IMG/VR virus record: IMGVR_UViG_2703718827_000011
Span: 1-5,241 of that record
DNA length: 5,241 bases
Reading direction: 5' to 3' (one strand)
DNA from: a virus
Taxonomy: Duplodnaviria; Heunggongvirae; Uroviricota; Caudoviricetes
Numbering within the stretch: the stretch's first letter is position 1; every line of letters starts with the position of its first letter. Below, in pieces: positions 1 through 5,241 of this stretch. Position numbers and translations under genes: made by a program. Under the pieces are notes generated by a model. That model worked only from the letters and a program-made list of their open reading frames with translations, ran no database searches and had not been told where the DNA came from.

Positions 1-1194
1 ATGATCACCGACACAAAGCTCAGGAAGGCGCTCGGCAAGAAAAGAGATGATATCGAGATTATTTCTGATTCGCACGGGCTCAACGCCAGAATCAGCCAGG
101 CCGGAAAAATATCATTTTTCTATCGGTATCGCTGGGCCGGTAAAGCGGTAAAACTCAATGTTGGTGATTATCCTGCAATGAGTATCACCCAGGCAAGAGA
201 GCGTCGCCAACAATTCAGAAACTGGTTAACTGAGGGACTGGATCCGCGAGAGCAGGTGAAGCTGGATAAGCAGACCCGACAGGAAGCGATGTCCGTTGCC
301 GAAGCGTTCAATTACTGGATTGAAAGGCACTGTATCGCTAACGGGCTAGTTAAAGTCGATTACTATCGCCAGGTGTTTGAGAAACATATCGCCGAACCGA
401 TGAAGAATGTCAAAGTCGATAACACAGCGAAAATGCACTGGATCAACGTCTTCGATTCTATAGAAAGCAGGGTGATGGCTCATTACATGCTTTCGCTGTG
501 CAAACGGGCGTTTAGGTTCTGCGTTAACAGAAGTGTGATCGCCTCAAACCCACTCGAGGGATTACTGCCATCTGATGTCGGGCAAAAGCCTAAAAAGAGA
601 ACTCGCAGGATGGACGATGACGATCTGCGCAAAATCTATCAGTGGTTGAAAAGCCATATGTCGATAGAGTCCGTTTTCCTGGTGAAATTTATTATGCTTA
701 CCGGATGCCGTACGGCTGAGATTCGACTTAGTGAGAGATCATGGTTTCGATTGGATGATAATGAGTGGGTCGTGCCTGCGGGCAGTTATAAAACTCGGGT
801 ACATATTAGAAGGGGACTCTCAGACGCCGCCGTTAACCTGGTCAGAAATCACCTCAAGAAAATAAACACCAATCACCTGGTGACTTCACAACGTAAAATT
901 GATGGCGGGATCAAAGATTCGCCCGTTCATTCACCTGTGGCATCCAATTACGCCCGTTCTATTTGGAATGGAACAGGTATGGCAGAGTGGTCGCTTCATG
1001 ATATGAGGCGGACGATAGCCACAAATCTCTCTGAGTTAGGTTGCCCGCCGCACGTAATTGAAAAGCTGCTCGGGCATCAGATGGTGGGGGTTATGGCGCA
1101 TTACAACCTTCATGACTATATCGATGATCAGAAACACTGGCTCCGCGTTTGGCAGAGCCATCTTGAAGAGATCATCGGAGAGCCCTTCAGTTAA
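1..1194 (+). CDS. int: Tyrosine site-specific recombinase (phage integrase, P4/CP4-57-like with N-terminal arm-binding domain)
   Basis: 397-aa ORF starting with ATG at position 1 and ending TAA at 1192-1194. The N-terminus ([49 protein letters not shown]) matches the P4-type integrase arm-binding region from memory. The C-terminus carries the catalytic pattern [11 protein letters not shown] ... [18 protein letters not shown] (R, H-x-x-R, Y). The RBS cannot be seen because the window starts at the ATG. Confidence 0.9.
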
Positions 1195-1388
1195 TTTATC
1201 TTCTTTTTATCCTCCCACTCTTTGATTGACTCAGAGCGCCAGCGGTTAGGGTTGCCGGGCCAGTCAGGGGGTGGGAACGGGCATACGAAGCCCCGAGGCA
1301 TTGTGTCTGCACTTTGCCATGACCAAAGGGTTTTGCGTGAAATTTTGTAGCGACTGGTCAGGTCTGACGTTACCAAAATATCATCCAT
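1191..1388 (-). CDS. AlpA-family DNA-binding protein (phage excisionase / transcriptional regulator, winged-helix)
   Basis: 65 aa from ATG at 1388-1386, preceded by GGAGAG about 5 nt upstream. The ORF-track start at 1433 is a TTG extension. The pattern [16 protein letters not shown]...[30 protein letters not shown] resembles E. coli AlpA (..TIYDWL...FPK...GW.E.EIDEWL). It lies next to the integrase at the distal end of the leftward operon. Confidence 0.7.
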
Positions 1389-1429
1389 AGCTCTCTCCAG
1401 TTGCCCGTTCGGGCCATTCAAAATCTTTT

Positions 1430-1672
1430 TCAACCAACCTGCCCGGGCAGGGAGCGGAGACGGCGCATGCCGGTCATCGCTGTGGCCACGTAGCTCGCCT
1501 TTCGGTTCACCACCTCCACCCAGACTTTCACGCCTTCAACCTTCACCGTATAAGTCTCTTTCATCTTGCTTCGCCCATAGTCGCCATATGTTTGCAAGTG
1601 AGCCGCCAGCGCAACATCGCAAGCGCGGCGACCAATAGGTGATTGCTTACTGCGATTAATCAGCTTCATCAT
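1430..1672 (-). CDS. Hypothetical small phage protein (80 aa), function unknown
   Basis: ORF with ATG at 1672-1670 (tandem ATG ATG; the track's first codon is GTG at 1675). GGGAG sits 7 nt upstream. Stop TGA at 1432-1430, 41 nt before the AlpA-like ATG. Same strand and operon as exo and xis. No family recognised. Confidence 0.55.
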   Translation of the reverse strand: MMKLINRSKQSPIGRRACDVALAAHLQTYGDYGRSKMKETYTVKVEGVKVWVEVVNRKASYVATAMTGMRRLRSLPGQVG

Positions 1673-1777
1673 CACTGCACTCCCAAAGTGGCTACGACAT
1701 CACTCGCTGTTTCGCGGGTACTGCCTTTGCTGGATATAGCCCGGTGCGCCCTGGCCTGCGGTAAAATGGTGTGCGTT

Positions 1778-3448: not shown

Positions 3449-4420
3449 TCAGTAATGAATTTTCGCGCAGGGGATCAGGTCATCTTTCAGAGCGGTAAGC
3501 ACTTCGATAGCCTGCTCGCGGGTTAAGCTGGTTTGGCTGGTGAGCGCGTTAACGATGTTGGTGCCGACCGTCTTGCGGTGCTTAACGTCAGCTTCACGCT
3601 TTGCCTGCTCATCGGCGAGGCGCTTCTCTTCGGCCAGGCGGGCATCTTCGGCCTGTTTGGCCTTCAGGCGCTCGGCTTCAACCGCCGCGGCTTTTTCGCG
3701 TTCCGCCCGGGCTTCCGCTTCCTGCTTCTCGCGAGCTGCACGCTGTTCCGCTTCGACGCGCTGGCGCTCCGCCAGTTCAGCGCGGGCTTTCTCTTCGGCT
3801 TCACGGCGCGCTGCGGCTTCAATCTCCGCTTTGTGCTTCGCTTCGGCATCGCGGCGGGCTTGTTCTGCCGCTTCCTGTTTCAGCCGATCATCACGTTCAC
3901 GCTGAGCCTGTTCCGCCAGACGGCGCTGCTCTTCGCGGTCACGGTCAAAATCCTTGTTCATCAGTAGAGCCATTTCGTGGTCCGCTTCGAACTTGGCAGC
4001 CAGCTCCTGATCGAACCTGATGTTCATCTCCAGCGCTTCGGCGTGCATCGCGTTCATGGCTTCTTCAGCCTTAATGCGTTCCTGCTCGGCTTCCCATTCG
4101 GTGAGTGGGCGGCGGGTCGCATCGCGCAGCTCGTCGCAGGCATCAACGAATCGCTTAATTTCGGCCTCAGCCGGACGCACAGCCTCTTTCAGGCGCTTCA
4201 GGTACTCACGGCCCGGCTTTTCGATTGCCGTCTTGCTGCGGGACACCTGCGCTGCCAGAGAGGCAACACGGTCACGGCCTTTCTTCGTGGACAGGTCCGG
4301 CACTTCGTTTACAGCCTGGCGGATTTGCTCAAGGTACGCGTCAAGGCCGCCCGCTACGTAAAGCACTGGGGCCTGTTCCGGCTTGATTTCGATGACAGTT
4401 AAGTCCGTTACTTCGCTCAT
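3449..4420 (-). CDS. Hypothetical protein with a long E/R/A/K-rich charged helical (single-alpha-helix / coiled-coil-like) central segment; function unknown
   Basis: 323-aa ORF with ATG at 4420 and AGGAG 5 nt upstream. Stop TGA at 3451-3449, 7 nt before the gam ATG, so it is co-transcribed. Three parts: an N-terminal region of about 140 aa, a central run of about 130 aa of almost pure E/R/A/K/Q (e.g. AEQARRDAEAKHKAEIEAAARREAEEKARAELAERQRVEAEQRAAREKQEAEARAEREK), and a C-terminal tail of about 40 aa (TVGTNIVNALTSQTSLTREQAIEVLTALKDDLIPCAKIHY). No family recognised. Confidence 0.8.
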   Translation of the reverse strand: MSEVTDLTVIEIKPEQAPVLYVAGGLDAYLEQIRQAVNEVPDLSTKKGRDRVASLAAQVSRSKTAIEKPGREYLKRLKEAVRPAEAEIKRFVDACDELRDATRRPLTEWEAEQERIKAEEAMNAMHAEALEMNIRFDQELAAKFEADHEMALLMNKDFDRDREEQRRLAEQAQRERDDRLKQEAAEQARRDAEAKHKAEIEAAARREAEEKARAELAERQRVEAEQRAAREKQEAEARAEREKAAAVEAERLKAKQAEDARLAEEKRLADEQAKREADVKHRKTVGTNIVNALTSQTSLTREQAIEVLTALKDDLIPCAKIHY

Positions 4421-4490
4421 GGTTTCTCCTGAAATTTGGATGTGCAGATCCCGCCCGCGTAATGCCAGGCCGATCGGTTGAATAGGGTGG

Positions 4491-4688
4491 TTACTGCTGC
4501 GCGATGGATTTCGCCGGGAACTCGCCGTTGCGGATGATGCTTTCTACCGGCCAGCACTCAGCTGACACTTTCTGCTCTGTAGCTGCCAGGCTGCATTCCT
4601 GCTGGCTGTCGTAAACGCCGAGAATGACATCCTGATAATCACCGTTGGTCATTGCCACGGTCAGGACGAGTGCGAATAAAGTTTCCAT
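4491..4688 (-). CDS. Hypothetical small protein (65 aa) with hydrophobic N-terminal segment; possibly a Kil-like host-interfering peptide
   Basis: ATG at 4688-4686 preceded by GGGAGGA about 11 nt upstream; stop TAA at 4493-4491. Sequence METLFALVLTVAMTNGDYQDVILGVYDSQQECSLAATEQKVSAECWPVESIIRNGEFPAKSIAQQ. The ORF-track version (to 4742) is a non-ATG extension. The Kil-like suggestion rests only on position and a loose N-terminal resemblance recalled from memory. Confidence 0.5.
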   Translation of the reverse strand: METLFALVLTVAMTNGDYQDVILGVYDSQQECSLAATEQKVSAECWPVESIIRNGEFPAKSIAQQ

Positions 4689-4936
4689 CAGTGAAGAGTC
4701 CTCCCGATGGCGACGGCGTAAAGGCGTTTTGCTTCTTCCCACGCCGGAGCATTGCGATGGAGTACCGCGAACGACGCGAGCCGTTGGGCCTCTCTGATCT
4801 GCTGCTGATTTACCATGATTACCTCTTAGCCTTATCGCGGCGAACGGAACGGTTAATACAAGACTTCTGCGCTAATGGGCGGTGGATGGCCGCCGGTTGT
4901 CATAACTAAGCCGCCTCGGTGAAGCGACTGAGGTAT

Positions 4937-4961
4937 GAAAAAAGCCGCTGGTTAGGCGGCT
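4937..4961 (-). terminator. Putative rho-independent terminator on the - strand (GC-rich 6-bp stem, 7-nt loop, followed by a U6 tract)
   Basis: The + strand reads AAAAAA-GCCGC-TGGTTAG-GCGGC-T. On the - strand transcript this is a stem-loop AGCCGC/GCGGCU followed directly by UUUUUU. A second imperfect hairpin (CCTCGGT...ACTGAGG, about 4912-4933) lies just downstream on the - strand. Confidence 0.4.
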
Positions 4962-5142
4962 ATTGATTGAAATTAAATGAGCGGGGAGATATTTGGCTTG
5001 CAGCCCTGCAAAATGCGCTATCAAGGAATTGATACTTATGTCGCCACACTCTGCCGCGCTGATCACCATGCTTTGCACAATCAGGTCGGCGCATCATGGT
5101 GAAATGAACCACTGTTTCGCTTGTAGCTTTAGGTTTACGCAT
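4960..5142 (-). CDS. Low-confidence small basic ORF (60 aa from first in-window ATG; frame stays open to the window edge, so the gene may start beyond 5241)
   Basis: ATG at 5142-5140 with GAGGG 7 nt upstream. Stop TAG at 4962-4960 lies inside the terminator stem. Product MRKPKATSETVVHFTMMRRPDCAKHGDQRGRVWRHKYQFLDSAFCRAASQISPRSFNFNQ is R/K/H-rich. Third-position GC is not elevated, so coding status is uncertain. Confidence 0.25.
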   Translation of the reverse strand: MRKPKATSETVVHFTMMRRPDCAKHGDQRGRVWRHKYQFLDSAFCRAASQISPRSFNFNQ

Positions 5143-5241
5143 GCTCTTACCCTCTGTCGTTACCCGCTGATGCGGGAGAAATGCTTTGTGGTGCAGCGCC
5201 GGGTGCTTATCTTCCGGTTGCCGTCGATGCAGCTGCAATTC

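Follow-up and report, generated by a model that had tools for sequence, protein, structure and literature searches.

The 65-aa protein encoded on the minus strand at positions 4491 to 4688 of the window, the whole 5,241-nucleotide stretch of viral DNA analysed here, is almost certainly a member of the DUF1482/YdfD family, judging from its sequence. The protein matched the Pfam family PF07358 (DUF1482) over the complete profile (positions 1-57 of 57) with an E-value of 2.5e-24 and 85.3 bits, the curated cut-off of this family being 25 bits, and in PHROGs it was assigned to phrog_1092 (E 1.2e-28). BLASTP aligned it end to end with YdfD of E. coli K-12 at 44% identity (27/61, E 2e-18), and K-12 YdfD itself matched both PF07358 (E 3.9e-26) and phrog_1092. 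When phage genomes were searched by tblastn, matches were found beside genes annotated as "Division inhibition protein dicB" and under "YdfD" annotations. The protein is an ordinary addition to a known, little-studied family and is already annotated as DUF1482.

The family, which carries the label "unknown function" in Pfam, PHROGs and PGAP, is narrow. An exhaustive profile search of 1.84 billion representative proteins returned 70 DUF1482 clusters at E<=0.001. Locus searches with the family members P0069 and P0060 gave 0 and 1 loci, respectively. DUF1482 was not mentioned by name in the literature searched, and NCBIfam held no model for the 65-aa protein, for YdfD or for the two neighbouring products, orf42 and the 323-aa protein (Table 1). 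In an alignment of 32 diverse family members (alignment A2), C32 and C45 were the only invariant columns, while L7, V8 and G16 were conserved in at least 90% of the sequences. As is characteristic of the family, the protein is a single domain (about 55-70 aa in the family) with a hydrophobic N-terminal strand and two Cys residues, and its gene lies in a lambdoid early operon, with an overlapping small gene upstream and recombination genes downstream. One clade of DUF1482 proteins carries four Cys residues (MFALVLFVCYLDGGCEDIVVD...). It was seen in IMG/VR contigs (L181-L260, positions 1-273), nearly always at the end of the prophage contig, and where upstream DNA was present (L198, L243) no small upstream ORF overlapped the gene. 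The two additional Cys residues fall in the hairpin turn and where strand 1 ends, which may point to a metal site or a further disulfide bond in certain clades.

The window corresponds to the left arm of a lambdoid prophage, in which all the genes listed in Table 1 except the integrase gene are read leftward from the minus strand. The window shares about 99% identity with a prophage that adjoins kch in E. coli ET245. The int, xis and DUF4060 genes (window 1-1744) are 99.9% identical to those of phage phi80, which has no close match to the recombination and DUF1482 region of the window; a likeness to phi80 limited to window 1-1744 is typical lambdoid mosaicism. The recombination genes were found to differ among loci that have the orf42-DUF1482 cassette in common. 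At the opposite end, positions 4963-5241 contain two long ORFs that overlap on opposite strands. The one on the minus strand stops directly at the terminator and has a 60-aa core matching phrog_17199 (E 2.4e-24), and the plus-strand ORF from 5038 is extended by PGAP in EF7-18-51 to an 'ECs_2282 family putative zinc-binding protein'. The coding-strand test of this region had a single homologous locus with zero variation.

Table 1. Features of the window, with strand and supporting matches.
Feature	Position	Strand	Remark
Integrase	1-1194	+	99.9% identity to phi80 integrase
Excisionase	1433-1191	-	
DUF4060 protein	1675-1430	-	
YqaJ-type exonuclease	2395-1778	-	
RecT	3138-2392	-	
GamL	3441-3157	-	
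323-aa highly charged, Ala/Glu/Arg-rich protein, possibly coiled-coil	3449..4420	-	phrog_1376 (E 2.6e-99)
65-aa DUF1482/YdfD-family protein (almost certain member)	4491..4688	-	PF07358, phrog_1092
Shine-Dalgarno GGGAGGA of the 65-aa gene	4699..4705	-	Read from sequence; within the orf42 coding sequence
orf42, 42-aa helical-hairpin microprotein (predicted)	4688..4816	-	Conserved
Shine-Dalgarno AAGAGGT of orf42	4821..4827	-	4 nt before ATG 4816-4814
Intrinsic-terminator-like hairpin AGCCGCC-TAACC-AGCGGCT then TTTTTT	4937..4961	-	Terminator scan

The reading frame of the 65-aa protein runs from the ATG at 4688-4686 to the TAA at 4493-4491 of the minus strand and encodes METLFALVLTVAMTNGDYQDVILGVYDSQQECSLAATEQKVSAECWPVESIIRNGEFPAKSIAQQ, in which a hydrophobic LFALVLTVAM stretch is followed by a polar tail with C32 and C45. 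The initial annotation had described exactly such a frame, with this N-terminus and a Cys-containing tail, and had assigned to it a strong Shine-Dalgarno sequence; all of these were present, the ribosome-binding element being GGGAGGA at 4705-4699, with strong complementarity and a rather long spacing of 10 nt from the ATG. The 82 homologous loci comprised 55 distinct DNA versions, and the variable sites at codon positions 1/2/3 numbered 15/12/46. An identical 65-aa protein, WP_021571179.1, is listed by PGAP for several E. coli genomes under the name "DUF1482 family protein". The full-length match to PF07358, the excess of third-position variation and the PGAP annotation thus identify it as a real, conserved gene under purifying selection and not a chance reading frame. 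A longer reading of 83 aa from a GTG at 4742 was rejected: the homologues all begin at the ATG, and the added region is the orf42 coding sequence in another frame. The gene appears to be common, since a search with the 600-nt stretch 4400-5000 gave matches to some part of it in 2277 of the 5426 complete E. coli genomes, for the most part at 90-95% identity.

The 65-aa gene had been regarded as the first translated gene of the leftward operon. This did not hold, for orf42 (4816..4688), equipped with its own AAGAGGT, precedes it and overlaps its start. The 42-aa product of orf42 has the sequence MVNQQQIREAQRLASFAVLHRNAPAWEEAKRLYAVAIGRTLH, and its TGA stop codon at 4690-4688 is fused with the ATG of the downstream gene as TGATG. 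In all 77 close loci orf42 was directly upstream of the DUF1482 gene, and DUF1482 was conversely present in 80/80 loci found with orf42 as the query, many of which are contigs already counted. Even where orf42 homologues were down to 71-79% identity, in Rac-like and GamL-type contexts, DUF1482 was still the gene directly downstream. The 43 DNA versions of orf42 encode only 8 protein versions, and its variable sites by codon position (2/6/25) show stronger purifying selection than those of the 65-aa gene (15/12/46). Given the few protein versions, this variation pattern, the presence in 77/77 loci and the Shine-Dalgarno sequence of its own, orf42 is a real gene. PGAP leaves it unannotated in the near-identical prophages of E. 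coli ET245 and EF7-18-51. AlphaFold modelled the product as a two-helix hairpin (helices 2-19 and 23-36, pLDDT 90.5); it matched no family in Pfam or NCBIfam, and BLASTP gave no alignment with KilR, Kil or DicB. The TGATG overlap suggests translational coupling, and the two proteins are probably made together.

Another proposal had been a two-gene module formed with the 323-aa protein. Downstream of DUF1482, a homologue of the 323-aa protein was found in 50 of the 77 close loci (52-100% identity), GamL followed directly in 20, and something else was found in the other 7. In E. coli KL53 only a truncated piece of the 323-aa gene is left, with orf42 and DUF1482 intact. Missing from 27/77 loci, while orf42 is missing from none, this gene is an optional insertion separating DUF1482 from GamL and no obligate partner, and the proposed module is not supported. 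Neither Pfam nor NCBIfam had a family matching its product.

As a rule, the homology shared by the loci ends near 4380-4440 and, in the other direction, near 4900-4966; hence, the travelling unit consists of the leader, orf42 and DUF1482. The terminator-like hairpin, about 125 nt before the start of orf42, coincides with the upstream boundary of this conserved module or lies inside it; in 51/87 loci the homology to the window continues to at least position 4940, entering or crossing the hairpin, before it is lost. The stretch from the terminator to orf42 showed no sigma-70-like promoter. Complete prophages have a gene for a LexA/cI-type repressor farther upstream, also on this strand. The cassette would therefore seem to be expressed in the delayed-early phase, and only when transcripts from the leftward early promoter get past the terminator. 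The kil, cIII and gam genes of lambda are likewise delayed-early and read once transcription passes a terminator. Within the leader (4817-4936), further GC-rich hairpins such as GGCGG-CCATCCA-CCGCC were observed, which match no Rfam family. In the Rfam scan of 4300-5241 no match exceeded the gathering score; those to Fluoride, Trp-leader and frameshift-site models were far below threshold. The Fluoride riboswitch match (4491-4553, plus strand; 19.4 bits, gathering score 34, E 0.01), which is antisense to the 3' end of the 65-aa coding sequence, is most likely due to chance.

YdfD (b1576), the lysis protein of the Qin cryptic prophage of E. coli K-12, is the studied homologue. Lu et al. (2022) reported that expression of the 63-aa YdfD lyses E. 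coli (PMC8835842), and an independent report confirmed that it is toxic (PMC9782134). According to a 2023 study, it is the sole product of the dicBF operon to have been characterised besides DicB and DicF (PMC10448788). Pull-down, size-exclusion, ITC (Kd 18 uM) and FRET experiments indicated that YdfD binds IspG, an enzyme of the MEP pathway, a link that comes from a single laboratory, with a weak Kd and tagged proteins and without an enzyme assay (PMC8835842). The lysis was relieved by overexpression of ispG or by HMBPP; the binding was carried by the N-terminal part of YdfD (residues 1-28), and killing was abolished by the loss of even one terminal residue or by L63A (PMC8835842). YdfD was purified as soluble fusions, and of the two conserved Cys residues described in it, mutants still bound IspG (PMC8835842). 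According to the same paper, dicB and ydfD belong to one operon and partially overlap, and the division inhibitors DicB and SulA prevent the lysis by YdfD, for which Masuda et al. (2016) is cited there (PMC8835842).

The two proteins have much in common. Besides Pfam and PHROG family, full-length identity and size (63 vs 65 aa), they share the FxLVLTV hydrophobic N-terminus, both invariant Cys residues and a QEC..AATEQK....C.PV core. Both genes lie in a lambdoid early operon under repressor control, with a start codon that overlaps the end of the small gene before it and with recombination or exonuclease genes downstream. However, the upstream partner of YdfD is DicB, whereas that of the 65-aa protein is a 42-aa predicted helical hairpin unrelated to DicB, and the downstream genes encode the 323-aa protein, GamL, RecT and a YqaJ-type exonuclease in the window and a RecE-type protein in the case of YdfD. 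Of the 28 residues in the IspG-binding N-terminal part of YdfD, 10 are identical in the 65-aa protein. The N-terminus of the latter is less hydrophobic than that of YdfD (best 19-residue Kyte-Doolittle window 1.04 vs 2.0), and thus its localisation may differ. The C-terminal tail differs as well (RNGEFPAKSIAQQ vs HQDNIEIPAGL in YdfD); considering the sensitivity of YdfD to changes at its terminal residues, the killing activity may not carry over.

Taken as a whole, the explanation that we find reasonably probable is that the 65-aa protein is an early-left protein of the YdfD family, acting as a host-directed inhibitor of toxic or lysis type and coupled to orf42. It would be made early after prophage induction from the pL-type operon of Enterobacteriaceae lambdoid prophages, in which its gene is positioned between the immunity region and the recombination genes. 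The transcript has to pass the intrinsic terminator about 125 nt upstream, and orf42 and the 65-aa protein are probably made together. As a small acidic soluble domain, the protein would bind and inhibit a host protein, by analogy with YdfD, for which inhibition of IspG would starve the cell of precursors for isoprenoids and undecaprenyl phosphate. Strong expression would result in toxicity and cell-division-dependent lysis; DicB, encoded by the adjacent upstream gene, suppresses the lysis by YdfD through its block of division, and orf42 may moderate the activity equivalently here. On the analogy with YdfD, the chance that the 65-aa protein is toxic or lytic upon overexpression is slightly better than even, and IspG is a tentative candidate for its host target.

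The main rival to this explanation is that the protein is a diverged DUF1482 member with a natural role other than lysis or IspG inhibition, non-toxic at natural levels, for instance inhibition of another host protein, anti-defence, or modulation of the adjacent recombination system. The 44% identity to YdfD and the different C-terminal tail leave room for such a change. Directly downstream of the gene there are always genes for recombination or for a host-nuclease inhibitor (GamL/RecT/exonuclease in the window, RecE elsewhere), and small early-left proteins such as Gam, Kil, cIII and Ral of lambda typically bind varied host targets. Moreover, a lysis protein made early would be counter-productive for the phage, and lysis may hence be an overexpression artefact instead of the natural role. 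Against this rival, the conserved core, with the Cys pair and the AATEQK motif, is common to the 65-aa protein and YdfD, and the sole experimental data on the family indicate toxicity and lysis (PMC8835842, PMC9782134). We consider the rival rather less probable than the inhibitor reading.

A second rival holds that the protein is a membrane-inserted small toxin or a single-gene lysis protein, with an N-terminal anchor or signal and a periplasmic disulfide between the Cys pair. The hydrophobic N-terminal stretch and the invariance of the Cys pair agree with this, as do the distant members P0067, P0069 and P0106, whose hydrophobic N-termini are longer and preceded by K/R. K-12 YdfD, with a best window of 2.0, exceeds the usual threshold of 1.6 for a 19-residue Kyte-Doolittle window, and Masuda et al. 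in 2016 are said to have proposed its membrane association. Hydropathy and charge, applied to the transmembrane and signal-peptide question of the initial annotation, nevertheless spoke against it for the 65-aa protein. Its uncharged run extends over just 12 residues (3-14), beyond which come N15, D17, Q19 and D20; the highest window score is 1.04, compared with 2.8 for phiX174 E and 3.1 for HokD, the net charge is -6, and the N-terminus reads M-E-T. The protein has neither a hydrophobic segment of about 18-20 residues nor a signal peptide with a basic n-region, and few parts of the family are as well conserved as the hydrophobic N-terminus, which would not be expected of a signal peptide that is cleaved off.

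The predicted fold points the same way. AlphaFold, run with 25 homologues, gave a beta-beta-alpha-beta model (strands 4-12, 18-26 and 44-48; helix 29-38) with a pLDDT of 83 for the whole chain and of about 90 for residues 1-50, in which residues 4-26 form a beta-hairpin; no convincingly similar structure was found among solved or predicted viral structures. On this model the hydrophobic N-terminus most likely provides the core strand in a small acidic domain that is soluble, and its second hydrophobic face may serve in dimerisation or target binding. Since soluble YdfD fusions, including Cys mutants, bind a cytoplasmic enzyme (PMC8835842), the homologue too argues against a membrane toxin, which we regard as improbable.

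The known single-gene lysis proteins (phiX174 E/MraY, Qbeta A2/MurA and phage M LysM/MurJ) have no homology to the 65-aa protein, and phiX174 E, unlike it, possesses a true transmembrane helix. If the YdfD-IspG model holds, they would share a logic, in which a small phage protein blocks one cell-wall-precursor enzyme and thereby leads to growth- or division-dependent lysis, a comparison drawn for YdfD in PMC8835842. E, A2 and LysM are, however, dedicated lysis genes of small ssDNA or ssRNA phages, whereas the 65-aa gene lies in the early operon of a tailed temperate phage. Tailed temperate phages normally carry a separate holin/endolysin lysis cassette elsewhere in the genome, and the window shows none.

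Kinship to Kil or KilR (FtsZ inhibitors) or to cIII (an FtsH inhibitor), which the initial annotation had raised from the position of the gene and from a loose T-L-x-A...G-D pattern, is very improbable, because no BLASTP alignment at E<=100 was obtained with any of lambda Kil, KilR, cIII and DicB. The gene does occupy the kil/cIII slot upstream of gam, bet and exo, and the lambda Kil N-terminus given in the initial annotation was accurate. The Pfam scan at E<=0.1 returned DUF1482 alone, without any Kil or cIII family, and the families differ: PF07358/phrog_1092 for the 65-aa protein against PF06301 (72 bits) for lambda Kil and phrog_294 for KilR, DicB being PF05358. Pairwise BLASTP with YdaG, YdfB and YdfC found nothing either. 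Kil and cIII are predicted to be helical, unlike the fold predicted for the 65-aa protein with its beta strands. The lysis by YdfD requires ongoing division and is blocked by division inhibitors, the opposite of a Kil-type effect (PMC8835842). What stands of the original idea is that the kil/cIII slot of a lambdoid early-left operon holds a small protein with a characterised homologue, YdfD, that is toxic to the host (PMC8835842). Lambda Kil and Rac KilR resemble it in belonging to the same early-left operon region and, as its family membership suggests, probably in being host-directed and toxic when overexpressed; they differ in sequence, family and predicted fold.

Overlap with a small upstream gene is not confined to orf42. 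The stop codon of a small upstream ORF overlapped the DUF1482 start in 174 of the 179 DUF1482 loci with upstream DNA and abutted it in 2 more, counts that are dominated by the query clades and amount to four or five independent cases. The partner was orf42 (42 aa) in 84 loci, plus the 2 that abut, DicB (62 aa) in 82, a phrog_3722 protein (66-72 aa) in 6 Rac-like prophages that also have YdaE and RecE, and a "DFARxPARxQAVR" protein (37-43 aa) in 2. Four of the five clades sampled thus show the overlap with mutually unrelated partners, and the four-Cys clade at prophage-contig edges is without an overlapping partner. The other family members are found between the overlapping small gene and RecE/exonuclease genes, downstream of a repressor. 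The phrog_3722 partner (...RTGAAWLVSF.Y....YWHEPQGNLRHIRRPYA...NLVPAGTH; about 3798-4001 in L009-L013 and 2301-2501 in L094) occurs in Rac-like prophages of Enterobacter, Citrobacter, Klebsiella and others, with the same CAC-TGA-TG junction to DUF1482 and with a YdaE-like zinc protein and RecE next. Its position had suggested KilR for the 67-aa Rac-like partner; there was no similarity, and the protein belongs to phrog_3722.

Gene overlaps are common in phage early operons, and the overlap alone is therefore no proof of a functional pair. A moderating role for orf42 and the other partners is nonetheless reasonable because DicB is known to suppress the lysis by YdfD. Extended to the family, DUF1482 might be the constant half of a two-gene cassette, in which orf42 and the other partners would be independently recruited division inhibitors or antidotes restraining a conserved envelope-precursor toxin while the prophage is in its early development. 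We consider this generalisation doubtful at present. If it is true, orf42 would be the functional Kil analogue that the initial annotation had sought in the 65-aa protein.

Taken alone, the identification of the 65-aa protein changes little, as the gene is already annotated as DUF1482 and the family has a characterised toxic member; it places the clade of the 65-aa protein in a family reported to inhibit the MEP pathway (IspG). The most interesting by-product is the conserved, unannotated orf42 together with the recurring arrangement of a variable small gene and DUF1482: the analysis reveals a strongly conserved 42-aa gene, apparently translationally coupled to its neighbour, that PGAP missed. 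The coupling of unrelated upstream genes to DUF1482 offers a testable hypothesis, namely that such genes may be new phage division inhibitors or antidotes.
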